Positions 8,771 to 64,000 of a stretch of DNA of 64,000 nucleotides are shown here, piece after piece. The translations under genes and the position numbers were made by a program. The stretch is from a virus: IMG/VR virus record IMGVR_UViG_3300050821_003907, positions 117,161-181,160 of that record; one strand, given 5' to 3'. The notes under the pieces are model-generated. The model saw nothing but the letters and a program-made list of their open reading frames with translations, did not search any database and had not been told where the DNA came from. The first letter of the stretch is position 1. Every line of letters starts with the position of its first letter.

Positions 8771-9545
8771 TGACCTCTCCCGTTAGTTGCAGCTTGTGCT
8801 TGTTCTCCAGGTGCCTGCTCACGTAAGCACAGTCTGGCTTCATCAGCAAGTCCAGGTTCCGCATCAAGAACAGCGCCCATTCCCCTTTAAACAGGCTGGT
8901 AGCCGTGCGCCGTAGCGCCCAGTGGTAGGCCGCCCGTGGCGACCCCCGGTACTGCTGAGGAATCAGGATGCGCTCCAGCGCGGTCGTGTAGATTTCCTCG
9001 CGTACCAGCTTAACCTGAGTCTCGAAGTTCATCGACCAGAACTTGGTGTTGTCCACGAGTACGTCAGAGCCGTCCTGCAAGATGGCCTCGTACAGCGGGC
9101 GCTCGCCGTAGGCGACAGAATCGTGGACTGAGTCATGAACGTACTTGCGCACTACAGCGTCCGCAAAGAACTTATCAGAAGACTGGTTAAGGTTTGTTGA
9201 GTGTTTCTTGTAGTGGTCTTTCCAGACCGGCAAGACGATGTCGTACAGCTCACGGATAAACGTGCAGTTCTTACGAGACAGGAAGATGATATCGTAAGCG
9301 TGCTTGTCCCAGTCTTGCGGGCCGTTGATTTCCCAGAAGCCATGAGAAATTTTAAGCGTGTACAGTTCGTCAGGCGTAGCGATGTTACTCCACGGCCATT
9401 GTCCCAGGCGCTTATCCCAGAAGCAGTCATTGCGTCGTGCATCGAAGTTTACAGGGTAAGGACTTAGCCAGTCCCAGTCTCCGTTAGGCTCTCGGGCATC
9501 GGGAAACCAGTGCTTCAGCGCACGTGAACCTGTCAAGGTCGCCAT
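8763..9545 (-). CDS. nucleotidyltransferase-like protein (Pol-beta-type GS/DxD N-terminus)
   Basis: LTGSRAL...DWDW at the N-terminus; function inferred from the motif only. Confidence 0.55.
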   Translation of the reverse strand: MATLTGSRALKHWFPDAREPNGDWDWLSPYPVNFDARRNDCFWDKRLGQWPWSNIATPDELYTLKISHGFWEINGPQDWDKHAYDIIFLSRKNCTFIRELYDIVLPVWKDHYKKHSTNLNQSSDKFFADAVVRKYVHDSVHDSVAYGERPLYEAILQDGSDVLVDNTKFWSMNFETQVKLVREEIYTTALERILIPQQYRGSPRAAYHWALRRTATSLFKGEWALFLMRNLDLLMKPDCAYVSRHLENKHKLQLTGEVND

Positions 9546-9725
9546 CAGGCGAGTCTCCTATTTCTCGGCTACATTAACGATGAAGGTCTGCGTGTTGCGA
9601 AGCTTTACCTCAAACTGAAAGACATTTCCTACCTGTCCCAGGAAGTAAGTAGCCTTAACCACTGTCAATTGCTCAACCGCTGCTGCCATTACAGCGGCCA
9701 TGTCTCTTTCAGACCACTGAGCCAT

Positions 9726-10025
9726 CTATCCCCCGATTTGCTCTATGAGATGCTTGATTAGGGTGCGCGCTGACTCTGATGACGCAGTTTGATGGAGTAC
9801 GAAAGGCTGTTGCGGGCCTACCACAGAAGCGCACACTTCCCAGACACCACGTGTGACGTTCTCCCTGAAGAACAAGCGGGCAATGTGGTCTACGCCGATG
9901 AAACTACCGTCAAGTGCGGGGATGAACTTCATGACCGGGACAACGCTGTCCCGGTCATGAGTATTCCCTAGTGTCCTAGCGCGTGAGACGCCGGGCCCCA
10001 TCATAGCCGGATTTCTTTGCCCCAC
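9726..10025 (-). CDS. hypothetical protein
   Basis: Coupled ORF; start probably later than the track's start. Confidence 0.5.
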   Translation of the reverse strand: MGQRNPAMMGPGVSRARTLGNTHDRDSVVPVMKFIPALDGSFIGVDHIARLFFRENVTRGVWEVCASVVGPQQPFVLHQTASSESARTLIKHLIEQIGG

Positions 10026-10294
10026 TTAAGTTCCGCTAGGCGGAACTGAGATTGGGGCCACTCATTAGGGTGCACACGGTAAGGAACTATAGCTATGTGA
10101 TTTTCCTGCACAAGGTCATCCACGATGCCCCACGCATTGAAGTCTTCAGGAAAGAGCATAGGATAAGCCTCTACTGTGTCTTCAGCTAGACCACTCATTG
10201 CTCCCTCCTCGTATACAGGGGTGTTCTGAGCAACATAAATAACAACGGCACTCCGTCGTGCCAGTTGCAAAGTGTTTTCCCGAATGTCATCCAT
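10001..10294 (-). CDS. hypothetical protein
   Basis: GAGAGG RBS, overlapping run. Confidence 0.6.
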   Translation of the reverse strand: MDDIRENTLQLARRSAVVIYVAQNTPVYEEGAMSGLAEDTVEAYPMLFPEDFNAWGIVDDLVQENHIAIVPYRVHPNEWPQSQFRLAELKWGKEIRL

Positions 10295-10964
10295 GATTAG
10301 CCGCCTCTCGTTTAGCTGCGATTTCTTCTTGCAACATCAGCACCGTTTCCGTAAACTTGTCTAGGTCATCTACGACAAACCACTCCGAAACGCGCATCTT
10401 ATGCGGGAAAAGATTGGGTACACCTAGGAGCGCTAGGCTGCTCTGGATATAGGCTTCTTCGGCCTGAGAAGCACCCCGCATCATGAGTACGCTCTTCGCT
10501 CCCGTGAGCCGTTCAGGATAACCGTTGCGTTTAGCTACATCTCTAGCCGATGAAGGTGTATCACGCCAACGACCGGTTGAGTAGCCTACTTTAGCTACGC
10601 CTTGTTCGGGAAATACAATCACGTATACAACGGCACCTGAAGAGTCTTCTATGTCGATAGAGGAATCCCACATAGCATTGCCGACACCTGGTTGGCCTCC
10701 AGGCTTTCGTCGCCTAGTAACATCCCGGAGGCTTCCACAACTACGGATATTTCCGGACTTAAATTCTTTAGCGACTACTGTAAATGCCGATTTTAGGCCA
10801 TTACATTCCGGGCAATTACAGACAACTTCTACACAATTACGGGAAACTTCGCCCCGCGAAGTCATAACTACACCTTTAAAGGTGTCACTAGCAGCCTCTA
10901 GGTACCCGTCAGGCTGACGGGTACCTCGGCTAATTACTATCCGGTCGCCCTTGGCGTTACTCAC
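10287..10964 (-). CDS. GIY-YIG (T5orf172-like) endonuclease with N-terminal Cys module
   Basis: VVYVI...AKVGYS plus EWF; N-terminal VCNC.EC...KSGNIRSCG. Start tentatively the GTG at 10964. Confidence 0.65.
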   Translation of the reverse strand: MSNAKGDRIVISRGTRQPDGYLEAASDTFKGVVMTSRGEVSRNCVEVVCNCPECNGLKSAFTVVAKEFKSGNIRSCGSLRDVTRRRKPGGQPGVGNAMWDSSIDIEDSSGAVVYVIVFPEQGVAKVGYSTGRWRDTPSSARDVAKRNGYPERLTGAKSVLMMRGASQAEEAYIQSSLALLGVPNLFPHKMRVSEWFVVDDLDKFTETVLMLQEEIAAKREAANHG

Positions 10965-10999
10965 ACCACGAATAACGCCTGACTGACCGCCTGTATTCC

Positions 11000-11887
11000 T
11001 TAGTGACCTAGGACATGTGTGGCGGGTCCGCCGCCATAATTCAACCAAATTCCGAAGCCCAGCAGGAACGTGAGCACCGGGATGGCGATGAACAGCACGA
11101 CCTTCAGGACCTTGCTCTGGTTAGCCACGCGAAGCGCAGCTTCCTGCTGGTCGGTGTACTTGTCCTCAAGGTAGTCGTAACGGTGCCTGTAGTTCGGCGG
11201 GAACCACTTAGGCGGCGGGGACTTGCGGGCAAGTCGCTTCTCCGCTTGCATGGTCTGGAACGTGCCGAACACCGGAGCCAGAATTTTGTGGGCAGGAATA
11301 CCAGCGGCGATACCAATGATGGTTAGCTGCCACGAACCCTTGTTCACCCAGTCAGCAACCCACGGGTTACCGCTCTTGGTGCCCCAGTGCTCAGCGAACG
11401 CAAGCCCATGAGACAGCAGGACAATCATGACGGCAGCGACAGCAGCCGAAGCCAGGAACGCAAGGACAAGGTGTCCCAGCATCTGATGCCACTTAAGCTT
11501 CTTAACGTACTTGAAGCCCACCATGATGCCCAGCACGAGCAAAGTACCCAGGAAACCGATAAGCACATGTCGTGCGTCGTGCCGAGCAGTAACCCACCAC
11601 AACGGAGCCGACTGGCTGTGCAGCCCGAACGCCTGGTGTGCATGACCCAGGTACTTGTTGTGCAGGAGGTTCTGAACGTGAACAGGGAGACGGTCCCACG
11701 TGTCCTTCAGGCCGATGAAGGTAGTAGTAGTGTTACCATACTTAGTCTGGTACGCGACCTGCGTGACCAGGAAGTAGATGGCCGAGCCAATAGGCACAGC
11801 CACCTGCGACAGCAAGGCTCCCCACATCAGCAGCAAGCCACGGTCAGTGACCCTGAGCTTGTGCTTCTTCAGCAGTGCATCAGACAT
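11000..11887 (-). CDS. multi-pass membrane protein
   Basis: About 5-6 hydrophobic segments; AAGGAG RBS. Confidence 0.75.
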   Translation of the reverse strand: MSDALLKKHKLRVTDRGLLLMWGALLSQVAVPIGSAIYFLVTQVAYQTKYGNTTTTFIGLKDTWDRLPVHVQNLLHNKYLGHAHQAFGLHSQSAPLWWVTARHDARHVLIGFLGTLLVLGIMVGFKYVKKLKWHQMLGHLVLAFLASAAVAAVMIVLLSHGLAFAEHWGTKSGNPWVADWVNKGSWQLTIIGIAAGIPAHKILAPVFGTFQTMQAEKRLARKSPPPKWFPPNYRHRYDYLEDKYTDQQEAALRVANQSKVLKVVLFIAIPVLTFLLGFGIWLNYGGGPATHVLGH

Positions 11888-12042
11888 GCTAACTCCTTAC
11901 CAGATAATGTAACTACGTGAACCGAACCGAAAACACAGGCCGTAATTGTCTACGGAAAAAGAGATGCCGAATGCGTAATGGTTAAGCACCGACAACTGCA
12001 ATCGTTTGCGCCTAGCCCGCAGGTCACTGGCCAGTACTTTCA

Positions 12043-12471
12043 TTACCCCCTCACAATCTTGCTACCAGTAAGCGCAGCGAACCCTAGCACGTCAGCAGGA
12101 CTGACGCTAGCCGTAGAACAGGTCCAGCCGTCTAGCCGGATGCCGCCTTGCGCGTCAAGAGTGAATCCCTTGCCGGGGTAGCAGGTCCACTTAGTGCCGT
12201 CCAGGTCAGCCACGATATAAGGAGTACCCTGCGCATCAACCTTGATGACAGGACTCAGCCCGTCCGTGCGGAACACGGACATCAGGACACCGGGCTTTAC
12301 TGGCTTAGGCTGGGGGTGAACCTTCGGGTGCTGCTGGGTTGTCGTCTTCGTGGCCGTAGGGGTCGTCGTCGGAGAAGGAATCGAGTGATGCCAGCCAGGA
12401 ACGGAACAACCGGCCAAACACGCTATAGCTCCAATCGGGATGAGAGGATAGATGAGGTTACGCAGCTTCAT
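12043..12471 (-). CDS. lipoprotein with Pro/Thr-rich linker
   Basis: MKLRNL...IACLAG|C lipobox; start moved to 12471 (TAATG coupling). Confidence 0.7.
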   Translation of the reverse strand: MKLRNLIYPLIPIGAIACLAGCSVPGWHHSIPSPTTTPTATKTTTQQHPKVHPQPKPVKPGVLMSVFRTDGLSPVIKVDAQGTPYIVADLDGTKWTCYPGKGFTLDAQGGIRLDGWTCSTASVSPADVLGFAALTGSKIVRG

Positions 12472-12743
12472 TAAGACTCCTTCCAGGTGTAGTGTCCTTG
12501 CCTGTCGCACTTCCTGCACCTAACGAGTCCATACTTCAACCCGCTGAGGCAGTAGTCACATACGAACATGAACTTCACGTGACCGCACTCGCACTTGAAC
12601 ATCACCCGGCAGGAAGCAAATTCTCGGCAGTCAAGGTAAGCACGTTCATCGTCGTACATGATGGTTCGTTGCATTTGACATGGTGGTGCGCTGTCGAGGG
12701 ACGGAAGCTCAAGCCTCTCAACTTCAGCTATGCTTACGCTCAC
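12471..12743 (-). CDS. Cys-rich putative zinc-binding protein
   Basis: GGGGAGG RBS and GTG at 12743; CEC, CDYC, CRKC; resembles 19468..19734. Confidence 0.65.
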   Translation of the reverse strand: MSVSIAEVERLELPSLDSAPPCQMQRTIMYDDERAYLDCREFASCRVMFKCECGHVKFMFVCDYCLSGLKYGLVRCRKCDRQGHYTWKES

Positions 12744-12754
12744 GTATCCTCCCC

Positions 12755-15115
12755 TTAAGGCTTCATTCCACGGTGTCGTCGCAGGATTCGCTTGACCATC
12801 ATCAGGCACTGCAATGCGGTCAGCACAGCCAGGATTCGCCATCCTGTGAGGAGGGTGTAGTCCTGCCACGCACCGGGAAGGTGTTGCCATGCAGTGACGA
12901 TTCCGTAGATGAACCCAATGATGAGCAGCGAGAATCCGAAAATCTTAGGACCGAAGCCCATTGACTTACCGGATTCTGCCTTCTTCTGCGCAGCCCAGCC
13001 ATCACTGCCCGTGCCTGTAAGGACCTTGAACGTCGCAACGGTCATGGACGTTGCCCGGAAGATAAGGTAAAGCTCTACCGGAACCAGCGTTGCTGCTGAT
13101 ACGACATCCAGCGGAGTCCTGTTAGGCATGCGCATTGTCTGCCGTATGTTAAGCAAGATTGCCAACGCTGGCGGAATCAGCCAGTACCAGGACCAGTCGA
13201 ACTTGTGCACGGACAACGACGCGGTTAGCATGACGGCGAACATCAGGCGCATGAACCCGTTGAATAGCAGTCCCGCTACCTGAGTAGCCAGGGTTGCCGT
13301 CCACTTGTTCAGCCCCGATGTCATGATGAGACGCGCGATGCCCTGGTCCCACTTCTGGCGCTGTGCCCAGAGGGACTTGAGGTTGTGCATGGCACCGGGG
13401 TACGCACGCGCCTCAGGGTTAACCGTGGTCTTGTAGCCAAGCCCTCGCAGGTCACCGGTGAGCTGCATGTCCTCGACCTGGCTGGAGGTGTCCCACGGGA
13501 CGCCCATGCGCTTCTCTGCCACCTTCAGCAGCGCGCTGGCACGGAACAGGCTGAGCTGACCGCCAAGGACGTAGGTGTTGCGCTTGTTGTGCAATAGCGA
13601 GTCAGTCCAGTCACTGAACTCCACCCGCTGCATGCGGACAAGCATTCCCCCCTCTTGGTGGAACGTGTAGCGTGCCATGACGCCCCCGACGTTCCGGTCC
13701 TCGCGCAGTTCCGTCTCCAGGTGCTGCAACGCATCTGGCTCAAGAACGGTGTCAGCATCGACACCCGCAATGTACTCGAAGCCTTTGTGGTGGTGTTCCC
13801 ATCCCTGGTTAAGAGCGCCGGTCTTCTTGTCGCGGTTGCCGACAGTCTCCATCACAGTCGCGCCATACTGGCGTGCGATGCCAGCGGTGTTGTCCCCGCA
13901 GTTTCCTGTGAGGATTCCCCCGGAAAGTGTGAATTCGTGTTGTTCGGGAACAACGGCACAGCCTACGGTGAGGTAGGCTTCCGTGTCTCTAACATCAGTG
14001 ACCATCCATTTGATATTCTCTGCCTTCTTCAGAGAAGCGCGGTAGGCTGTAGTTTCTTTTCCGTCACTGTAGTTTCGCACGTAAGTTTCCTCCCATCGTC
14101 CTATCACCATTAGCCCACCGAAGGGAGCGTAATCTTCTAGCCAGTCAATGATGTCTGACCTCATCGACGCAGGGTGATTAGACCCGGTGCGCTTGTTCAC
14201 GTAACCATCGGCCGCTAGATACCCGTGAGTAAATCCTGCTGCGTAGTTAGCCGTAGGGCTGATTGGTAGGTCCTTAAGATTAGCGGTGTCCTTTACGTAT
14301 AGAGTTCCTCGGTACTGCGGCGTAGCTTCAGCTTGCGACTTCACTTGACGAACTTCTTCTTCAAAGAAATCCGCCATGCGAATCTTGTCTGCGTAAAAAG
14401 AGACTCGATAAGTACGGACATTGTCTAGGTTGTGGTAAGTCTGAGTACCGTCTCCAAAAATAAACCCATGTCGAACGCCTGCACGATAATCCTCACTAGC
14501 AGTGTCGGCTGACACATCGGTAGACGTGGGAATTACATCGCCCTTCGTGATGTCAGTAACAACACCTCTTTCGGTAATCCAGCGGTGGTCGGGCGTAACT
14601 CGCACTGTCCTACGATAAGTCGTACGAGAAGGTACTCGCCATCCTTGCTTTCCGTTACGATAAGTGACGGATTGCGCGGGACCTAGTTCGACTTCTTGAA
14701 TCCTCTGAACGCCGAACTTTTTAATTTCCGCCTTTTGCCACCCACTGCTTGTTAGGATTTCTTGAACCGTACCTGCGGTTTCCCGGAAAGACTTGATGCC
14801 TTCACGAGTAAGGTACCTTTCGTCCAGAGCGAAACAGTTGTCAGCAATGACTACGATGCGGTCTGGCGTTCGCGTCTGCCGCTTAAGTGCGGTGATGGTG
14901 ATGCCGATGGAATCCTGCTCGTCGTGAGCGGGAATCATCACCAGCACGCGGCCGGTCTTGACAGCCTTAACCGGGTCACGATAGCGAATCTTGTCTACCG
15001 CACGGGAGACTTCGCCTACTAGAATGCGGGCAGACTGCTTTAGCTTCTCAGCCGGGCGAAGCCGTGGCGCTCTGGCTGCCGGGGGCTGCCACAACATTAC
15101 ATCTGTCCCTGGCAT
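12755..15115 (-). CDS. processive GT2 glycosyltransferase (PgaC/IcaA-like polysaccharide synthase), intein-containing
   Basis: IPAHDE, VIADN|C, KTGALN, DADT (DxD), VEDMQL (TED-like), QRQKW (QxxRW-like), C-terminal TM helices. Confidence 0.92.
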   Translation of the reverse strand: MPGTDVMLWQPPAARAPRLRPAEKLKQSARILVGEVSRAVDKIRYRDPVKAVKTGRVLVMIPAHDEQDSIGITITALKRQTRTPDRIVVIADNCFALDERYLTREGIKSFRETAGTVQEILTSSGWQKAEIKKFGVQRIQEVELGPAQSVTYRNGKQGWRVPSRTTYRRTVRVTPDHRWITERGVVTDITKGDVIPTSTDVSADTASEDYRAGVRHGFIFGDGTQTYHNLDNVRTYRVSFYADKIRMADFFEEEVRQVKSQAEATPQYRGTLYVKDTANLKDLPISPTANYAAGFTHGYLAADGYVNKRTGSNHPASMRSDIIDWLEDYAPFGGLMVIGRWEETYVRNYSDGKETTAYRASLKKAENIKWMVTDVRDTEAYLTVGCAVVPEQHEFTLSGGILTGNCGDNTAGIARQYGATVMETVGNRDKKTGALNQGWEHHHKGFEYIAGVDADTVLEPDALQHLETELREDRNVGGVMARYTFHQEGGMLVRMQRVEFSDWTDSLLHNKRNTYVLGGQLSLFRASALLKVAEKRMGVPWDTSSQVEDMQLTGDLRGLGYKTTVNPEARAYPGAMHNLKSLWAQRQKWDQGIARLIMTSGLNKWTATLATQVAGLLFNGFMRLMFAVMLTASLSVHKFDWSWYWLIPPALAILLNIRQTMRMPNRTPLDVVSAATLVPVELYLIFRATSMTVATFKVLTGTGSDGWAAQKKAESGKSMGFGPKIFGFSLLIIGFIYGIVTAWQHLPGAWQDYTLLTGWRILAVLTALQCLMMVKRILRRHRGMKP
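13901..14836 (-). mobile_element. intein (312 aa) with LAGLIDADG homing endonuclease
   Basis: Starts C1 FALDERYLTREG, ends ...LTGN with C+1; HGFIFGDG and HGYLAADG motifs. Removing it restores GT2 ADNCGDNT. Confidence 0.92.
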
Positions 15116-52926: not shown

Positions 52927-55900
52927 CTAGTCGTCAATGTATTCCATGTCTGCCAGGGCATGGCTGGCACGCCCCATGACGTACTCCAGTGGCATCTCTT
53001 CCACGAACGGAAGCCGCATGCCTAGCGGGTCACAGACAACCTCTACAGGTGTGTCCGGAGTGAAGTTGAATACACCGCACAGGTCGATATGCACGTCGGT
53101 TGCATTGTCGCCATACGTTTCGGCATCATCGCTCACGGTGCCGACGAACACGTTAGTCCTGATTTCAGGCTTGCGCCCCGTACTGGGATGGTATTCGGTA
53201 ATGGTGTCCTGACAGAAGCGCACTACGTGCCCCTTGCGCAGGTTGCGCGCTGGCATGTTAGTACTGACGGCAGTCATCTCATGTGCGAACGGCATTACTT
53301 ACCCTCCTTGCATTCGTGCGTGAACGGGTTAGCCTCATGCCCGCAGTCGGGACAGTGAGAGATTTGCCAGTCAAGCAATTCGCGATAGCTAGCGAAGTTC
53401 ATTGTGCCCCTTAGCTGTGCGGGAACGGGATGTGCTCACCGGGTGAGACCGGATTGCCCACCTGATAGGCGAGGGTTTCGATTTCCTGGTAAAGCCGCAT
53501 GTGCTCGGCTGTTGACCAGTTGCGCTCTAGGAACTGAAACAGGTCTTCTGACATGGCTACCTCTCGGCTAGTGACTTCTCATTGGTGCGCTGCAAGAGAT
53601 AGCGTCCGTCGCCCGCTTCCCACGCGGTGTAACCGTTGCCTATGGCGCGGTGGCCACTTGCAAGGTCTGACGCGAATTGCCACGCGACGTTAGCGGGCAT
53701 GTCGCTCATTAGCCTGAATAGCTCTCGGCTACCGGTGATGGCGGTCATGTCTATGCCTAGCTCTGTCATCTGCGTAAGGTCTCCCGATTCTGAGTAAGGT
53801 GCGTAAGGCTAGACGTTATCGGCCCAACGTCGTTTGGGCTTAGGCGTCCGAGTGCGCGGCGGCGCGGCTAGTCCCTTAGCTCGCAGTTCCGCCAATTCCT
53901 CGCGGCGATTGCGCTCTAGCTCCAATTCTTCTGGAGTGCGCGTCTGCGGAGTGAATTCCCGGAACGTCAGGCCGCTAATGTCTAGCAGGGAATCGGCCGA
54001 CAATGCCAGGTTTTCGATAGTGTCGTTAGCGCGGGCTAGCGAAGCTGCTGTAGGGTTGTCCTTGGTAAGCGCACGATATACACGAACCTGGCCATTGTTA
54101 AGACGTTCGCGCCATGTGATGACGTCTTGGCTCACCTTAACGTGAGTAGCCTCATACTGCTCACGAATTGCATTCGCTAGTGTGCAGCGCGTTTCACTGC
54201 AAGGCTTGCTTAGTTCAATTGCGCGTGCCGTAAGGCGTAGGGTGCGGTTATCGGCCTTAATGTAAGACTTAGGATTGCTCATTTCGTTATCCCCCCGGAT
54301 TGCTTATCGATTATCGGTCATGCCAAGCATGCCAACCGCCCCACACAGCACAGCTAGCGCGTGCGTAGCCGCGTACGGTGGACTTGCAGCGCGGGCATGC
54401 TGCCGTGTCCGCGTCCAGATGGAACGCACCGGCCATCATCCAAACCAGTTCGTTCACGAGACCACCACACCGTAATGATTGGTGAACACGCACACGATGG
54501 CGATGAGCGCAATCGTGAATATGACGAATGCCAGGATGTCAATGTTCTGCACTAACCCCCACTTTCCAGTAGGTGACCGTGCACGGGGCACGCATGGCAA
54601 TACGGCGGGTTATACCCGTGACGCACGCAACAGCACATTGTCAGTCATCTTCCGCGATGACGGTAAGGTCGAACACCTTATCGTAGTACTCACTGGAGAT
54701 GTCGCCCGTACTGACGACTACCTTACCGCTCTTGCCTAGCGAGCTAGCGCGCGTGGCGTTAAGGAATGTGGCACTGTCGCCACGGAAATCGGTCACGACC
54801 TGGCCACGCTTGACGCGCTTGCCGTCACTGTTACGGATTGCGATTAGGGCCATTGTTGATTGCCTCTCAGTTAGAACGGGGGAACGTATGAAACCGCGTG
54901 GTCGTGCATCTGACGCGCGCCTAGCTCGTATGCCTCATTCAAGGCATTCGCGATGCGTTCTGCCTCATAGCGCGGGATGGCATTCTGGCCTAGTGTGTCC
55001 GTACTGACGCCAATGCAATCGACCGTGCGACTGCCGGGCCCGCGTGACGTATGACGCACGCAGAAACCTACACCGCTAGGGTGGCGCTGCACATACCACC
55101 AATGGTCGTGAGTGCTCACGCGATTTCCCCTCGCAGGTAGGCAACGATAGGCAGGAACGTGATAGCGCGCTTGCGACGGCGCACGCGCGGCTTGCTAGCA
55201 CGCTGTGCGGGCATGGGGTAGTGGCCATGGGTGTAGTTCCATGACGTTCCCTCATTCCAGTTTTCGGTTTCCGACACTAGCCGTTGCTCGGCTTCCGTGG
55301 CGTCCGGGGTTTCCCAGATGCTAGCGATAAGCGCGTTCACCTCATCAGGTGACCACGTGCGGCTTACCAGGCCAGTGAACTGCGCATCGACGTGAGTCTT
55401 TTCCATTGTTCCCCCTAGTGAATGTGCCGGACTGCGTGAGCGATTTCCACTAGCGCGATGACGCATGTCATTACGCTAACGATGCCTATGATGCTGCCTA
55501 TAACCGCTAGGCAATACAGGAAAGATATCTGGTTATCGTTCACAGTTACTCGATTCGCTCAATGGTGATTGGCTCACCAGGGCACAGCGCGTCAAGGATG
55601 TCGCCTAGCGCGTGCATTTCCTCGCGCATTTCATCTAGCCCGTACTCGTTTGTGATGACCTGGCCATTGCGCCACTTAGCGGTTTGCCTGAAACGCATTC
55701 GTCCCCCTATTGCGAATTGTCCAGTGCCACGTCTACCGTGCCCGCAATCTGGTCCTTGATGGACATGACTGCTAGCGTTACCGCGTGGTATTGTGCCCAC
55801 GCTATTTCCGGTATTGCGACACGGGAGATTACCTTACCGTTTACCTTTAGCTCGTACATAGCGGCCTTACAGTAGGCACAGAAGAATGAGGAAAAGCAGC

Positions 55901-58900
55901 CCGCACGCGAGAATGCCTGTCCACGTCGCACGGTTAGCGCTCTTTCGCTTGTTGCCTGCGATGCGCGTGCCCCGTGCGTGCATGTCTATAAGCCGTTGCT
56001 GTTGCGGCGTGTAGATGCTGCTCATTGTTCCCCCTAGATGTTCGTAGTGTGGAGTACGCGACTGTCGTCGCAGAGTTGAATGGTGACCGGTTCGGCGAAC
56101 ACTTCTGTGTGGCTAAGCGCGCGGATAGCATCGGTCACGGTAGCGTAATTGTCCCACGCGCGGGTGTAGTCCAGTGGAGCGCTGACGCTAGTCCCGTTCA
56201 CGTGTACTGTATAGGCCATTACCAATGCCCTTCGTTTTCGTCTTCCCACCATATCGCTACGATGTCCTGCCCGGTGCCCGCTAGGTGCGGGTACTCCGCA
56301 CAGTGCCGGAGTTGCGTGCAACCGTAAGAGCGGTACATGGCCCGGCACATTAGCTCACCCGCATCACCTTCTGGAATGCTATCGGCTAGCTCACCTATCA
56401 GGTAGCCAGCATCATCACGGTAGATAGCCAATGGTCACTTACCCTTCCGTGCGGAATGGTACCCACCGATGTACCCATCATCGTACCCGTCTAGGTATGG
56501 CGTCCTGTCGGGATTGTACACCCGCGCGGTATCGTGCTTGCCATCGCGGTAATCATCCCTCCCGTCTGTTTCGCCATCACGGACGCCCTGCTCATACTCT
56601 TCCGCATCGCGGTGTATTTGCTCCGCGTCGATTTCCTCTAGGTACGTGTAGTAGTCATAGCTGTAGTTACTCACTGGAATGTCTCCTAGTCTATTTCGTC
56701 CTTATAGAGTCGCGCTTGGTCCGCGCTGCACACAACGCTGTATGTCATGTCGCCGTTTACAGACCAGATATTGAACGTGCCACCTGTGGCCACCGATGCG
56801 GCTAGCTCACTGGCATTGCGGAGTATCGTAGTGCGGAGGAATTCCCGCATCTGGACAGTGCCCATGACAGGGGTGACCGCGTACCACGAACGTCCGTTCC
56901 ACCAAAAGATGTCACGTTCCATGGTGTCTTCCGCTTGCGTGTTGCGCTTCTCCGGTGCGTTGCACACTGTGCACATTAGCTTTCGTCTCCTGTCATGCAT
57001 GTCATGCACGGACATTGGCAACCCCTACCGGGGCAGTTGCTTGTTTCGTGGTCGCACATGTCTATGCGCCTAGCCGAGTGAGTGTGACTTGCGAAGTAGG
57101 TGACAGGTCGAATGTTCCGGCGTCCGTCTCAACGGTGCCGTGCGTCCATCGCGTCAGAACGCGCGCTGTGTCCCTGCGAGGATTGGGGTACAGTGCCACC
57201 ACGTCACCGGGTAGCAGAGCGCTAGCGTCCATTGTGACGCGCGGGAAGGGCACTCCGTTAGGGATGTCGTTTGGGTGGTCATCATGAGTGCTGTAGGTGA
57301 ACGTGAGCACTGTCATTGCTTCCCCCTAGTCGCGCGTTGCGCTTGCTACATGTGCTGTGTCCGTCCAGTGTGTATACGCGAACACACCGTCTAGGCTGCC
57401 ATAGCCGTCTACCGTCATGTTAGAGAGCATGACGTTGAATGCCTGGTCACTGCCAAGCAACTCCGTTAGTGTCCCGTACAGACGTACGCTCATCATGTTC
57501 CCCCCGAAACTCTTCCCTGGCAGTCTTCCACTGGAAAACGGCTAGGGCTATCGCGTCGATGATTGTGAGTTGCCTAGGCAAAATGCTCCGCAGCGAAATA
57601 CTCCGTAGTCTCCAGCGATTCGATTTCCGCTAGGGTGAATTCGTAGCCGCGTGCGTTAGCGGCGAACATGAGAAGTTCCGGCCACCGTGAACCGGCTTCC
57701 GTAACCGACGCGATGCATTGGCCGTCATCATCGATTAGGTTCACGGTTTCCCCGGTAGGGAACGGCACGCTCACGTAGTTGCGGATAGCGTTTGTGAAGT
57801 AAGGCTCACAGAATTCGATGGTAGGCATGTGATTGTCCCCTATCGGTTGTCTAGCTCTCGGATGATTGCGCGTAGCGCTGTGTCTATGTGCGTGTCGTTG
57901 CAGTACTCATACAGGTAGCATGTCATGAACCTAATGAGGTTCGCGCCGCGCGCTAGGTCCCACCGAAAGCGCTTCTCACTGAAATTCGCGCGGAAGCGAC
58001 TGACATGCTCGGATGATAGCGAATCAAGCGCTAGCGCCATGGCATCACGCATGTATTCGTAGTGCTCTGGCTTAACCTTCACTGTGATTCCCCTTGCATT
58101 GTTGAGTAGCGATACTCAGTAGGGCATTCCCTAGTCTCGGTTAGGCCACGGGGGAATGGCCACTAAGGAATGCCCGGCTCATTATCGCTACGCGAATTCG
58201 CGCTTAAGCGCTAGCACCGCATCGGTGACGCGCGTGCGATTCTCGGGAACGGTGTGCCCGGTCGCTTGGTCAATCGCCTTAACGCTCGATAGCGCTTGCG
58301 CGATGGTAATGATGTGCGTGGCACTCACTAGGTGAGTCTCGCCGTTTTCCAGCGTGACCAGGATGCCATTGAATTCAGATGCGGCGTAGCCATTGGCCAC
58401 CTTAAAGGTGTTGCCGTCATCATCGGTGAACGTGATGTGCTGTGGTGGTATCGTGGGAATGTTCACTAGGCAATGCCCCCCGCCGTGCGTAGCGCTTCCA
58501 TCTGCGTTTCGTGTACCGACATCTCACCTTCCGCAGCGTGACCGATGCGGCTTACCCAACCATCGTTGCTCTTGTACACCCAACCAAGCAAGCCACCATT
58601 GGCTAGCCGCACATCGGTGCAGTCCTTAACTAGTTCTTGGTCGGCCGTTACGGCTATCTGGCTAGCCGTGCCCTCATGACGGTACCCGATGATGACGTGA
58701 GTCATGTGCGCGTCTCCTGACTAAAGGTACGGGTTGTTGAGCATGCGGCGAACGTGAGCGTTGCCGTTGGCAGTCTTGCGCGCGGGCTCAGCGTAACCCT
58801 CTAGGTACGCTTCTGTTTCCGCCGCTAGGTGCTTCTCAGCATCGTACGGGGCACTCACAGCGAACGCTGCCACGGTGCTACTGTCGGCTTCCATCTGAGT

Positions 58901-60706
58901 GAAGTTCTGCGAGATGATGCTGGCGAATTCATCCATGGTGCTCTCCCTATATGCTCGTGATTGCTATGGCCATTACGCCACTGATTAGCGCTAGCAGGAA
59001 CACGTATAGGACAATCATTGTCCCGGTGCTCATTGGCTTAGCGTGCTTTGCAGGAGTGCCTTTCATGCGGTGGCTCATTCGGGAATCACTGCGAGGATAT
59101 CGCAGCCTAGAACCTGTAGGTCTGATGTGTGCGGCTTGACACGCGCATTGAACACACGTTCCACGCACATGTCACCGTGCCGGTTTTCGTAATGCACTAG
59201 CGTGGTAGTGCCCATTGTTCCCCCTAGAGGCTAACCGCGTAAAGGCTAGTGGCAGCCTCAAAGGTGCGCGCACCGTCCACATAGCCGGTGTGCCAGATGG
59301 TGAGGTTCCCTAGCTGCGCTTTGCCGTTGCGTTCTGCCTTGATAAGTGCCTTAACGGCACTGTCCGTGTCCGGTGCAGTGGTGACGATTTCCGATGCTGA
59401 CATCATCTGTGATTGCTTCACTGTGTTCCCCCGTGTTAGCCGTGATATGGCGTGTACAGCGCGCGCCTTATGTAGTGCGCGGGAATGATGGATGGTTGCG
59501 CGTCGGTTTCCGCTTGCGTTTCAGGTCGCCACTGTGCGGACGGCTGGAATTTCGGCTTAGAACCGATGACGATTGGCATTGTCCCTACCCTTACCGTAGT
59601 TTCCGAGTACCCGTAAGAGTGTGGCGCAAGCTAGGTACTGCCTAGCTCGCACCATAAACTGGCGGTTGCCCTAGTCGTCTGCAAACCATCCATGGATGGT
59701 TTCCGTGTCCCGTGTGCGGACCATTCCGCAATCGGTGGGTACTTCCCAGCACGCACCATTCTTGCGCGGCGTAGCGGCAACGCGGTAAACCAGCGTGCCC
59801 ACATTGGCATCCTGCCGTGCGAAGTAGTCACCCGTTTGCAGCAATAGCGCGCTGCACTCTGTCGGATTGCCGTATGCGAATAGTTCCATTACCGTCCCCA
59901 TAGCTGTGCATCGAACGCGCGCTGAGCTCTGCTCAGTGTGAGCGCATTCTGTGCGCGTACCCGTAGATTGTCGTCTGTTGCCGTAGCGATAACGGCTAGC
60001 AATTGCTCATCAGTCATTATCCCGCGCGACCTTCGCGCTTGAATGTGTTGTCATACATGGCGCTGCCACCGTTGCGACGACTGTTCATTGTGTTCGTGCG
60101 GCGCGTTTGGGCGTGCTCGATTGGCACATCGGGCTCTAGTCCAGCAACGGGATTGTAGCTCTCGTATGCGTAGGCGATTCCCTTAGTGCGATGCACGCGC
60201 TTGCGAGTCGATGCTGTGAAGTGCTCACCGTTACCGGCAGTGGTATCCTTGCGCTTACCCATTTTCGACCTCTATCACGATAGAGCCATTGTCACCACTG
60301 TGAGTGTGGTATGACCATTCCGGGTGACTGGTGAGCAGTCGCGTAATCCTGCCTAGGTCATTCTTGGTCGCGATTTCCAGAGTCATCGCGGGTCACCAGA
60401 TTTCCATGTCATTGCCGGTAATGCAAAATGGGTCGTCTCCTACCAAGTGGTAAGAGATGTAGTCGATAATCCTCAGTATAACGCGCATTGCTATTCCCCC
60501 GATTAGCTTGCTTGCGTGTAAAGGATTGCATCTTGCGGATTCATCAGCCTACGCGGCGTTATCACTTGCGTTGCGGCTAGTGTTTCCTTGCGTCCGCCCG
60601 GTTGTGGGTGGTTGCGACCGTGAACGCCATCGGTGCATGCCATGACGACTACGATTGCAGTCATCAGCACGACCATTACCTGTTGCCAATGGCTATAGCT
60701 AGCCAT
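52927..60706 (-). other. early-type region of ~30 very small CDS (e.g. 52927-53295, 53809-54282, 54641-54853, 54871-55119, 55116-55406, 56034-56219, 56219-56431, 56435-56674, 56686-57021, 57062-57316, 57574-57828, 57840-58082, 58188-58466, 58466-58705, 58721-58936, 59224-59421, 59671-59901, 60017-60262, 60503-60706)
   Basis: All on the minus strand, 45-160 aa, most with G-run RBS (GGGGGAA); typical host-takeover region. Confidence 0.65.
58087..58175 (-). promoter_or_regulatory. structured 5' leader with an anti-RBS loop upstream of 57840..58082
   Basis: 9-bp GGGCATTCC/GGAATGCCC stem; inner GGCCA/TGGCC hairpin whose loop TTCCCCCG is complementary to the GGGGAA RBS; TGAGTA/TACTCA hairpin. Confidence 0.45.
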
Positions 60707-61235
60707 GGCGAATCATCACCTTTCTGTAGTAGAGACTTGTTTTCAGCGATTGGCTAGCCGTTAAGGTATCGGCGGTATCTGGAATCAGGCAGCGCGGGCA
60801 TAGCGCAACAGAGCGTTACCCATGTCTTACCCTATCCCGACCATTGGCGATTGACCCTAACGGCTATCGTGAGCATGGCCGATTCCGAATCGGTAGCCCG
60901 CATCCATAGTCCGCTTACATTGCAGTCTGGCTAGATATAGTTCCCGCTTAGGCTTTGCCTACTAGCATTTCACCCAACGAATCGGGTTACTACACGTTTG
61001 GTCATCCCGTGAGTATGAGTCACGTAGTGGATTGCCGTATGCGGATGTTCACTAACCATGTCGCAAAGCGAACGTCATGCGTCCATTGCCATGCCCTTGA
61101 TTGGTTTATCTTCGCATCACCTTACGGTTGTTAACCGATGTGTTCATCGCTTGCTTTCGCGTCATGCCTTAACGTCACCCGCTACGATTTCTAGCGGTCA
61201 AGATAGCTCGTATCCCCCGATTGGCCGTTTGATTG

Positions 61236-61278
61236 CTTCCGTACCGTCTACCCTCCGCTCTTGCGAGCATTAACCGGG
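61236..61278. repeat. 43-bp repeat, copy A
   Basis: 42/43 identical to 62058-62100. Confidence 0.9.
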
Positions 61279-61690
61279 ATTGGTGCTAGCTGACTTAACA
61301 GCGCGCTATCTGGCTATCGTCGCTACGTGCTAGGGCTAGTCGCTCACTTCACACACATTGGCGATGCTATTCGGCTTATTCACTGCGATTACGGCGAACG
61401 CAGCTAGCGCTCACCGTAAAACAGCCCACAGAGAACCGAAACTCTGATTCATAACAGGACTGACATTTCACAACGATTGTTGCTGCCATGTCATTCTGAC
61501 ATCTCGCGTTGCTCCGTTACGCGCTTAACTCCGGTAACCCTTACCGCCGTTATAGCAACTTTCGCTATCCGTATACGACTCGGAATGACGTTCATCAGCT
61601 AGTTTAAGACGTAGCGCCATAGGTACTAGCGTCACTGACTAATTGTCACGACTGTTGACCTTACTTCCACGTTGCCCATTGCTTGCGATA

Positions 61691-61735
61691 CTTCCGTCAA
61701 TTCCCTCCCACACCGTAATGGTGTGCTTAACCGGG
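61691..61735. repeat. variant copy B (different central hairpin)
   Basis: Minus: CCCGGTTAA G CACACC-ATTAC-GGTGTG GGAGGG AATTGACGGAAG. Confidence 0.7.
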
Positions 61736-62057
61736 AGTTGGCTAGATGGATGTGAATCCACCGCGTATCTTACGTGATTTCAGTCCTGTAGTTGTATGTC
61801 CAGTTTCGCACTCCGGTAACATAAGTCCCATCCGGATAACATATGTCCGATATCGCCTATGGCGATTCGTTACCGTCTCGCAAGTATGGAGTTTGGGAAG
61901 CGCTTTGAGTCTTCCACTTACTTATGGTCACTGTCGCTGCCGGTACCCTCCGCGTTCGCTGCCGGTGTGCTGTTGTGACCTTCACTTAGTAAGACGCTAG
62001 CTAGGGGTTGGATGGTTGCTTCGCTGCGAGACTTTCTCTCGTAACTTTGCGTTACCA

Positions 62058-62100
62058 CTTCCGTGCCGTCTACCCTCCGCTCTTGCGAGCATTAACCGGG
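62058..62100. repeat. 43-bp repeat, copy C
   Basis: 42/43 identical to 61236-61278. Confidence 0.9.
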
Positions 62101-62521
62101 GGTGGCCTAGCTACCGCGTGCGTAGCGCGTGGCTTCCGTCCGAAACCCTCTGTGCTGTTGTCCATCTACTAACAACTCTACTCACCTCCAAGAGCGATAC
62201 AATCAGGTTTCCTGTTGACAACGTTAGTCATTTAAAACTTTCTTGGAGACCTTCCGCTAGCGTCGGAAACCCGTGCGTTGCCTAGGTTCTAGCTCTCGGA
62301 ACGATGCCGAATCGACGCTAACGAGCTCGCAGCTACCCGCGCGGGTAACCACTGCTAGATGGGGGTTGCTCGGCTTACAGACTGATTCTGAGCCGTACAG
62401 ACGACTGTCCGGTATGTCCGTTCATCCTGGCCAGGTTTTCAGGAATCGGAATTGCTTCGATTAAACGGACATTTGCGGGCAAATCGGGACATTCCGCTTG
62501 ACATCGTTGTCGTTCGCGGGC

Positions 62522-62553
62522 AAAAGAAAACCGGCTCTGTGTGAGCCGGTTTC
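62522..62553 (-). terminator. intrinsic terminator
   Basis: 10-bp AAACCGGCTC/GAGCCGGTTT stem followed on the minus strand by a T-rich tail (TCTTTTG). Confidence 0.75.
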
Positions 62554-63199
62554 TGTGTGGCGGCTAGCTGATTGCCGGATATGGCGTACCTGCCGTGTGC
62601 GGACCATATGAGACGTTCGTGGTTGCCGCACGGTACGCGGCTAGTGTCCTGTCATGCTCCGCTTGCAGCGATACGTAGCTGAGCTCTGCGATGCTTAGGC
62701 TTCCGATGTAGTTCATGGTGTCTGTCCGTTTCGTCTACAGGTAGCTAGCTGACGAGTTGTAGTCACGGGTGAACGCGATTGCGATTGCTTCACTCATGGT
62801 GTGCGAACCTTCTGTGGTGACCAGGCTGCTGACGTGGCCACTGTAGTCAATCGGCGAACCAGCGTTGTAATCGGTAACGAACGCGATTGCGATTGCTTGG
62901 CTGCTAGTCATTGCTTGGTCACCTACTGTTCATCTCGACTTGTCTATCTACTTCTAATGCTAGTCATTGCACATCGCAGTGCAACTCACAAATCAGACAT
63001 AAACAGCCATTGTGAAAACCAATATCAACTACTTTAAGTGAACAGTCAAACGCCGCAAACCGCACATTGTACATCATCGCTTGCCATGCTTCGCACGCTG
63101 CCAAGTCATCAATAGTTGAAGCCGCACACGTATGCATGACAGTAGACGACCATTGCCGATTCCGAGATTCCCCTCCCGTTTGTCATTAGTCAACAAGTG

Positions 63200-63370
63200 A
63201 ACAGTGTCATGCACAGTACAGTGTTGTTATCAGTTGATACGCACAGTCATGTTTGCACAGTCACAGTTAGCTACAGTCATCAGTGCACAGTCACAGTTAT
63301 CAGTCATCAGTCACAGTTTTCAGTGCACAGTTACTACAGTGTATTGTTAGGTACTGCTGACAGTACCAGT
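63200..63370. repeat. dense (CA)CAGT short-repeat array
   Basis: About 19 CAGT copies in 170 bp, strand-asymmetric, lower GC. Confidence 0.8.
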
Positions 63371-63942
63371 GAGTGCACGACCATGCACTACCATCAACTA
63401 CCGGGCGACTCGTTTAACGAGCTACACGCTATCGGGCAACGGCGATTTGCAACGTTGTCTTAGGTCCGTGAGCGTACCGTGTTGCGGGCCCACGCAACCA
63501 CACCGGAACGCGTGTGAACGCGTGCCAGGATGGTTGGATGGCAGAATCAGTACAAATCAGGCATTGTATAAAAGTAACAGTGAACAGTGCTCACAAGTAT
63601 AAAGTCACAGTGATATCGATGTCATTAGGCACTCCTGTCAGTGCAGATTGTATATTTCATTGAATCATGTATACAACGTGGCAGTGGTCGACCATCTCTA
63701 GTGAGAAACGCCGATTTGGCAAAACAACGTTGTCATCATGGGGGAATTATCTTGCCGTCAAGATTGTTGTTATAGACATGAAAGGCAGAGATGTAAGTTA
63801 CGAGTACACCTATGCACAATGGTTGAGTGTCAAGGATAGTCGTGCATTGTCAAGGAAGGGTCCACAATGCATTATGACTGCTGACGGTGAATGGGAGTGG
63901 GTGAGCTTGGATGAATATGCTCAGTAATGGTAGGATGGTCAT

Positions 63943-63981
63943 GACCATGGTCGACTACGCCCAGCCATGGTCGGTTTTTTT
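63943..63981 (+). terminator. possible terminator or end-proximal signal
   Basis: GACCATGG/CCATGGTC 8-bp stem with a 14-nt loop, then GG and T7. Confidence 0.4.
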
Positions 63982-64000
63982 AGGGGGCATCCACGCGGGA

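Follow-up and report, generated by a model that had tools for sequence, protein, structure and literature searches.

Why should a phage genome hold a stretch of DNA that carries no gene and that, its tRNA array aside, is conserved better than anything else in it? The question is raised by positions 60707-62563 of the window analyzed here, i.e., the final 64 kb (64,000 nucleotides) of IMG/VR record IMGVR_UViG_3300050821_003907, a 181,160-bp genome of the linear class that is rated 98% complete and, by its IMG/VR class, has no end repeats. Inside this empty stretch lies a block of ~1366 nucleotides (nt), hereafter the core, which, judged by comparison with its only relative, is a real, strongly selected, noncoding element:

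60870-62235, minus strand: conserved core free of open reading frames (ORFs), ~1366 nt, defined by identity to the relative; candidate RNA gene or leader.

The reading we favor, at slightly better than even confidence, is that the core specifies a new large phage RNA, namely one leftward RNA of ~1.3 kb, or several RNAs processed from one transcript, with a candidate promoter of its own. A preliminary description of the same DNA had proposed a new large noncoding RNA or RNA array at this place. Selection at the nucleotide level is strongly backed, no Rfam family matches, and swapped hairpins with compensated stems are found; the structural evidence for an RNA is thinner than first assumed.

Conservation of the Core

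The only relative found, IMGVR_UViG_3300021404_000005 (163.5 kb; hereafter G001), came from a motif pattern scan of IMG/VR and carries the motif at the same distance from its right end. By blastn, the two genomes are 90.7% identical across 60869-62031 and 72-80% identical in the flanking genes. Taken in 50-column windows, identity rises sharply at ~62230 and drops at ~60870, with adjoining noncoding DNA at 35-55%; both edges of the core are thus sharp and fall within noncoding DNA. As a neutral yardstick, we used 2681 four-fold degenerate sites from seven shared genes, which are 56.4% identical; in the terminase, a protein 96.6% identical between the two phages, such sites are at 57.9%. Measured against these sites, the identity of the core indicates that nearly every position of the 1.37-kb block is under purifying selection. 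Across the whole genome, blocks are 66-93% identical, and values of at least 90% occur only in the core and in two stretches of a tRNA array. Seven identical runs of at least 50 nt (50-69 nt) also occur in the core; the expected number is 0.42, and not one of 5000 simulations produced as many.

It could be argued that the block has no function and is merely younger than its surroundings, having been exchanged recently between two phage lineages. Phage genomes are mosaic, and the span of 66-93% identity along these two would suit such an event, but we find the idea hardly credible. The borders of the block match the gene-free stretch while leaving out its noncoding flanks, and only tRNA-array stretches are this identical elsewhere. 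Moreover, the differences are not uniform: they cluster in compensated hairpins, which argues against recent exchange as the whole explanation.

In all the collections searched, the core has so far a single relative. Blastn gave no match in 50,697 phage records, and none in plasmid collections. The motif scan of viral contigs found no genome but G001; the metagenome scan returned at least 117 stretches, all of which, except G001, proved by blastn to be chance; and the scan of species genomes gave two chance matches in Poribacteria DNA, without a hairpin separating the motif halves. A 600-nt part of the core (61200-61800), used in a word-based look-up, found no look-alike among the other genomes surveyed.

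A Repeated Two-Hairpin Module

Within the core, the pattern CCCGGTTAA-N8-25-GGAGGG-N3-10-ACGGAAG has three exact matches, all on the minus strand and all where the preliminary description had placed them (62058-62100, 61691-61735, and 61236-61278), against none in 100 dinucleotide shuffles. GGAGGG and ACGGAAG are separated by N5-8 in these copies, and the rest of the whole genome contains no further full copy. It was also correctly noticed that copies A and B are identical at 42 of 43 positions and that copy C bears a different hairpin, with 6 bp instead of 4 bp. Upstream of every copy, we find another hairpin, of unrelated sequence, followed by a UAG(C/G)-CA-rich linker, so the repeat unit is better regarded as a two-hairpin module of ~70 nt, laid out as hairpin, UAGC-linker, CCCGGUUAA, variable hairpin, GGAGGG, N5-8, and ACGGAAG:

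62058-62126, minus strand: module copy A; GCTAC-7-GTAGC, TAGG.. linker, CCCGGTTAA, GCTC-GCAA-GAGC, GGAGGG, N8, ACGGAAG.
61691-61762, minus strand: module copy C; GGTGGAT-TCAC-ATCCATC, TAGCC.. linker, CCCGGTTAA, CACACC-ATTAC-GGTGTG, GGAGGG, N5, ACGGAAG.
61236-61302, minus strand: module copy B; GCTG-TTAAGT-CAGC, TAGCA.. linker, CCCGGTTAA, GCTC-GCAA-GAGC, GGAGGG, N8, ACGGAAG.

The number of modules differs between the two phages, with three here and two in G001. In G001, the first hairpin of copy C reads GATGGAA-TTCG-TTCCATC, i.e., one compensatory and one wobble change with the remainder identical, and copy B is kept with two changes. Copy A lies within a stretch of ~70 nt missing from G001; ACGGAAG stands at both borders of this stretch, and over 48 nt it shares 94% identity with copy B, so a module has been gained or lost via recombination between repeats. 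Tolerance of two or three copies is more easily reconciled with a binding unit that repeats than with one rigid fold. A weaker fourth copy had been proposed as well, but its hairpin, ACC-GTAA-GGT, is broken in G001, and a competing CGGTT-AAC-AACCG hairpin is retained instead.

Copies A and B have a distance of 13 nt from CCCGGTTAA to GGAGGG, and copy C one of 18 nt; the variable part is a hairpin in each. Because the spacing of the conserved halves varies by 5 nt among copies, the motif itself is unlikely to be a promoter for a phage or host polymerase, a DNA-level role that the preliminary description had named among the outcomes that would refute an RNA interpretation. By minimum free energy (MFE), the modules are unremarkable, with z-scores from +0.7 to -1.8.

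Absence of a Coding Signal

No minus-strand ORF of at least 60 amino acids (aa) lies above 60706, and 60707-62563 is the truly empty stretch, with no conserved ORF. The DNA had been described as lacking coding-strand ORFs of 60 aa or more from 60.7 kb to its end; it is gene-free only up to 62563, as small ORFs of 50-58 aa beyond that point (62564-63214) are conserved in G001. Inside the core, the ORFs of the two genomes differ, with none in common, and the ten spurious ORFs of the empty stretch have no counterpart in a collection of 15 billion proteins. Substitutions fall on the three codon phases as 49/39/42 across the core, i.e., with no codon bias. Recoding was considered and rejected: reading TAG as a sense codon, for glutamine, opens no long frame.

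A subtler coding function would be a set of micro-ORFs, in which GGAGGG is a Shine-Dalgarno sequence and the ACG that follows 5-8 nt later is a non-AUG start, so that each module would encode a small peptide beginning (M)E(V/A). The distance is indeed in the working range; frames stay open for 48, 21, and 14 codons after copies A, C, and B, respectively; the frame of copy C stops at the identical codon in both genomes, and the 14-codon frame of copy B is identical in both. We nevertheless consider translation of this kind very improbable. In the copy C frame, the three changes all affect the peptide sequence, the 48-codon frame of copy A is lost in G001, codon-phase bias is absent, and none of the ten ORFs inside the block is called as a gene. 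Peptides of 14-48 residues would in any case be insufficient to explain conservation over 1.3 kb. No conserved micro-ORF, of the kind raised at the outset as a way in which the RNA proposal could fall, accounts for the block.

Structure Inside the Core

A joint local fold of both genomes contains 14 pairs changed on both sides and 20 that are wobble-compatible, with none broken. In stems of at least 5 bp, 12 pairs are compensated, compared with 5.8 +/- 2.7 in column shuffles. Local structures in the core include the following:

61594-61639, minus strand: nested three-helix domain of 46 nt with the best covariation; four pairs retained through changes on both sides, none broken, three invariant G-U pairs.
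61457-61497, minus strand: variable patch with a nested hairpin in both genomes; inner hairpin CAAC-AATC-GTTG here, CACTG-TAACG-CAGTG in G001.
61389-61419, minus strand: 13-bp helix with G-U pairs; -22.0/-19.2 kcal/mol on the minus strand versus -13.6/-9.7 on the plus strand; the sole change in G001 turns G-C into G-U.
61179-61197, minus strand: swapped hairpin; CCGCTA..TAGCGG here, CAGG..CCTG in G001.
60879-60893, minus strand: hairpin at the 3' edge of the core; CCGAT/ATCGG here, TCGGT/ACCGA in G001, with two compensated pairs.

Another hairpin in a variable patch is likewise present in both genomes, as ATCGCC/GGCGAT and TCACC/GGTGA. Selection at the nucleotide level is strongly supported by the combination of 90.7% identity in the core against 56% at neutral sites, conservation of the kind seen in the tRNA array, the missing coding signal, and compensated hairpin swaps; with no Rfam match, a new large phage RNA or RNA array is therefore the best reading. 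The strength first attributed to the structural evidence was nonetheless overstated: MFE z-scores are unexceptional, there is no enrichment of GNRA loops, and, besides the lost fourth copy, the hairpins GTAAC-GCAAA-GTTAC and CGAGA-GAAAG-TCTCG, although present here as described, are not conserved in G001. Hairpin counts compared with shuffles yield nothing decisive. Overall, structure appears to lend the RNA interpretation moderate, not strong, support.

As a separate observation, hairpin CGTGA-CTCATAC-TCACG (61006-61026) has a 7-nt loop laid out like the anticodon loop of a tRNA-Met (CAU), and G001 keeps it with a U-G wobble; the likeness may be due to chance.

Probable Strand, Candidate Promoter, and the Leader Alternative

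Several lines of evidence suggest that a core RNA would be read from the minus strand. The neighboring genes and the upstream terminator are on that strand; one-sided changes yield G-U pairs there, e.g., in the 61419-61389 helix and in ACCCGA-UUCG-UUGGGU versus ACUCAA-UUCG-UUGGGU; and the hairpins common to both genomes sum to -192.9 kcal/mol on the minus strand versus -154.2 on the plus strand. In addition, helices picked on the plus strand are nearly as stable on the minus strand, while those picked on the minus strand lose 12 kcal/mol on the plus strand. Three features frame the core in this direction:

62522-62553, minus strand: intrinsic terminator that closes the upstream small-gene unit; stem CCGGCTC/GAGCCGG here, CCGGCC/GGCCGG in G001, U-tract kept.
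62175-62202, minus strand: candidate SigA-type promoter; TTGTAT (62202-62197), 16-nt spacer, TAGAGT (62180-62175), predicted start at ~62168.
60503-60706, minus strand: first protein gene downstream of the core, starting 165 nt past it; 67 aa, hydrophobic.

The terminator is found where the preliminary description had placed it, and G001 also has it, the stem being compensated and the U-tract retained. The promoter candidate is the sole site that fits TTGnnn-N16-19-TAnnnT within 62560-62100, where ~0.45 such sites are expected by chance. It occupies the same aligned position in both genomes, with conserved hexamers and a variable spacer, and is plausible as an actinobacterial promoter.

The core stands at the head of a leftward arm of ~60 kb, as ORFs of at least 250 aa all lie on the minus strand between 117 kb and the genome's right end. 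The arm uses this single strand and consists for the most part of small genes. This layout brings in the most serious alternative, in which the 1.3 kb is the 5' untranslated region of a long leftward operon mRNA and the modules act in cis, either on the polymerase (antitermination) or on mRNA stability or translation. The put RNA of phage HK022, a cis-acting element of ~70 nt that directs processive antitermination through two stem-loops, offers a model: like the modules, it is an adjacent pair of stem-loops downstream of an early promoter, it is present in more than one copy per genome, and its stems vary in a compensated manner.

A leader would be in keeping with the first gene lying 165 nt past the core without an intervening terminator, which makes it a real alternative, and with hairpin pairs shortly downstream of a candidate early promoter, variable stems between fixed flanks, and a one-strand arm of ~60 kb, mainly of small genes, that would gain from antitermination. 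We still judge it unlikely. Sites of the put type, at ~70 nt, give no account of near-invariance over 1.3 kb, the conserved block being ~20 times larger, and cis action on polymerase is an analogy based on layout only. Furthermore, no Rfam cis-regulatory family matches, and the number of modules is unequal between the genomes.

Parts of the stretch occur in 17 public soil sequencing runs, seven of them metatranscriptomes, whose contigs give presence and not level, strand, or ends; their occurrence in RNA libraries is consistent with transcription but no proof of it. Contigs of RNA run X1 span almost the whole of 57-64 kb, and those of runs X4 and X10 cover parts of the core only, X10 also including 62560-62745, with gaps not usable as evidence. 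The contig ends of X1 at 61273/61244 and 62095 fall within the 48-nt repeat and are thus assembly breaks, not RNA ends. As for antisense targets, 17 complementary 12-mers exist in the genome, compared with ~15 expected by chance.

The DNA-Level Alternative

The conserved unit could also be the DNA itself, as an origin, a partition or packaging site, an injection-stop region, or an array of regulator sites, with hairpins that are incidental or form in single-stranded DNA. Its location 1.8-3.1 kb from the right genome end, a contig end common to both genomes, would be fitting, as would the repeated motifs and a CTAG frequency of ~10 per kb versus 4 per kb genome-wide. The unexceptional folding energy, and compensations nearly as numerous on the plus strand, point the same way. 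There is also a precedent in phage T5, where an untranslated repeat region of ~1.6 kb near the end, part of the long terminal repeat, contains the injection stop signal and acts as DNA; the gene-free stretch resembles it in combining repeats and palindromes near a genome end.

We regard a DNA-level function as quite unlikely. Arrays of binding sites keep the sites, not runs of 50-69 nt between them; the block is not AT-rich, with a GC content of 0.50-0.54; the spacing of the motif halves differs by 5 nt among copies; and wobble changes favor the minus strand. Unlike in T5, the changes resemble RNA-type compensation. No similarity connects the opening 6 kb of the genome with its final 6 kb, so there is no T5-type terminal repeat. 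A strand-biased array of ACAGT repeats at 62.9-64 kb, described below, is also a better candidate for an end-related function of DNA.

Comparison with Known Phage RNAs

An Rfam 15 scan (including GOLLD, ROOL, OLE, HEARO, raiA, introns, rRNA, tmRNA, and RNase P), one of the checks that the preliminary description had called for, produced no match at the gathering score in the whole window. With E-values up to 10, 60400-64000 gave only five weak matches, scoring 15-18 bits where the thresholds are 33-65.

The closest counterpart in print appears to be the Pleft RNA of Cluster A mycobacteriophages, probably as an analog and not a homolog. In L5, D29, and StarStuff, an early noncoding RNA arises from Pleft (Dedrick et al. 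2017, PMC5712189), in a gene-free region of ~500 nt at the right genome end; it is the most abundant phage transcript, is processed to 100-500 nt, and is toxic to the host (PMC5712189). In both cases, an actinobacterial siphovirus carries, close to its right genome end, a stretch without genes or conserved ORFs that heads the leftward early arm, and this stretch is downstream of an early promoter, here the candidate at 62202-62175, with the first leftward gene at 60706. The host group suggested by the SsgA-domain gene described below also agrees with this precedent. The differences are equally clear. The core, at ~1.3 kb, is 2.5 times larger, and a small gene unit with a terminator lies upstream of it. 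The mycobacteriophage region is notably variable (PMC5712189), whereas the core is the most conserved non-tRNA DNA of its genome. Direct comparison with L5 (50300-52297) gave only chance matches of 10-18 nt and no copy of the motif. High abundance and processing were seen in L5; for the core, the evidence is presence in metatranscriptome contigs.

GOLLD and ROOL, large ornate RNAs with Rfam families and determined structures (PMC12286853), are similar to the core in being large, phage-borne, conserved without a reading frame, and rich in conserved local elements. They differ from it in that they match Rfam models, whereas the core matches none and has an unexceptional folding energy. GOLLD and ROOL measure 600-800 nt and frequently adjoin tRNA genes; on the present genome map, the tRNA array and the core lie at opposite ends.

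Weighing the Favored Reading

The following observations weigh against a large RNA. The core was not found in ten long contigs of more distant terminase relatives (five searched by BLAST, all ten by covariance model R1), two of which have densely coding ends. Only two diverged genomes carry it, too few for covariation statistics of the R-scape type, and the fold that gives the compensated pairs was optimized on the same alignment. Folding energy in 120-nt windows is ordinary, with a mean z of -0.3 for the minus and -0.6 for the plus strand. Pairs predicted from a single sequence often fail in the other genome (37-45 broken versus ~25-30 kept), equally on both strands, and the strand-symmetric count of G-U versus A-C pairs is uninformative. 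No terminator separates the core from the first gene 165 nt downstream. Finally, RNA libraries can contain DNA, and contigs carry neither strand nor ends.

With these points in mind, the favored large RNA can be rationalized into the following steps. Transcription would begin near 62.2 kb, at a promoter belonging to the core and situated immediately beyond the terminator of the small pre-early gene unit, and would run leftward for ~1.3 kb. The product would be a stable noncoding RNA or, as with the Pleft RNA, a set of RNAs to which a single primary transcript is cut, consisting of many short conserved hairpins linked by invariant single-stranded stretches. Through their purine-rich tracts, the modules would offer one factor, of the host or the phage, a series of binding sites, and the RNA might serve as a decoy or scaffold during takeover.

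A bolder version makes the core the first representative of a new family of phage noncoding RNAs of very large size, exceeding GOLLD at ~1.3 kb; its two-hairpin modules, variable in copy number, would form a multivalent decoy or scaffold for a host factor in the early takeover of sporulating actinomycetes. We put this forward tentatively, as a possibility that we would not expect to prevail.

Genome Context and Neighboring Features

The genome is that of a large soil siphovirus, with a tape measure protein of 2843 aa and recognizable terminase, portal, and major head proteins. Its terminase shares ~33% identity with the terminases of Arthrobacter, Rhodococcus, and Mycobacterium phages, and the presence of an SsgA-domain gene (PF04686, 87 bits) points to a sporulating actinomycete as the host. 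Between ~5 and 115 kb, most ORFs of at least 250 aa use the plus strand, the exception being a minus-strand block at 72-84 kb. The terminase clade comprises many contigs of 100-235 kb at ~50% terminase identity; seven homologs of 880-960 aa (P0005, P0030, P0033, P0044, P0053, P0064, and P0087) contain LAGLIDADG/Hint-type domains (PF14528, PF05204), which suggests that the large terminase in this clade of soil phages contains inteins.

An array of 34 tRNA genes lies at 9,332-14,058 of the genome, on the plus strand near the left end and outside the window; the 64-kb window itself contains no tRNA or tmRNA gene. The 67-aa gene downstream of the core (60503-60706) is 70% identical in amino acids to its G001 counterpart and its product belongs to no Pfam family. 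Used as queries, this protein and a neighbor of 114 aa found no homolog but themselves. CTAG occurs at 8-12 per kb in 53800-62000, which spans the small-gene region and the core, i.e., two to three times the genome mean of 4 per kb, and the enriched word in the core is CTAGC.

Upstream of the core, the DNA that separates the terminator from the candidate promoter includes a small conserved island with a perfect 14-bp palindrome, TACCCGCGCGGGTA (62334-62347). G001 keeps its 5-bp arms and changes the center from GCGC to ATGC; the palindrome could be an operator or an RNA hairpin. Farther right, the 58-aa ORF at 62735-62911 (71% amino acid identity in G001) includes a 35-nt direct repeat (62756-62790 and 62864-62898) that encodes a duplicated peptide, (Q/E)AIAIAF..DYN. 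Repeats containing ACAGT extend over 62900-64000, densest at 63243-63334, with 18 on the plus strand versus one on the minus strand and a spacing of ~20-30 nt; G001 has 16 versus one despite only ~72% sequence identity. They have the rightmost plus-strand ORF on one side and the beginning of the leftward genes on the other, and are a candidate operator or iteron array or end-related DNA site. That rightmost ORF (63667-63927, 86 aa) is the sole plus-strand ORF at the right end; it matches G001 only in its first 23 residues (74%) and is followed, at the contig end, by a hairpin and a T-run.

Significance

Few large RNAs of unresolved role are known (GOLLD, ROOL, OLE, raiA, and the L5 Pleft RNA), and each opened new RNA biology. 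If the favored reading is true, the core RNA would be among the largest bacterial or phage RNAs of its kind. Its signal of selection is unusually clean, with ~91% identity where neutral sites are near saturation, and the difference in module copy number between the two phages offers a handle for pull-down and deletion tests. More generally, actinobacterial phages may repeatedly follow a design in which a gene-free stretch devoted to an abundant RNA heads the early arm.

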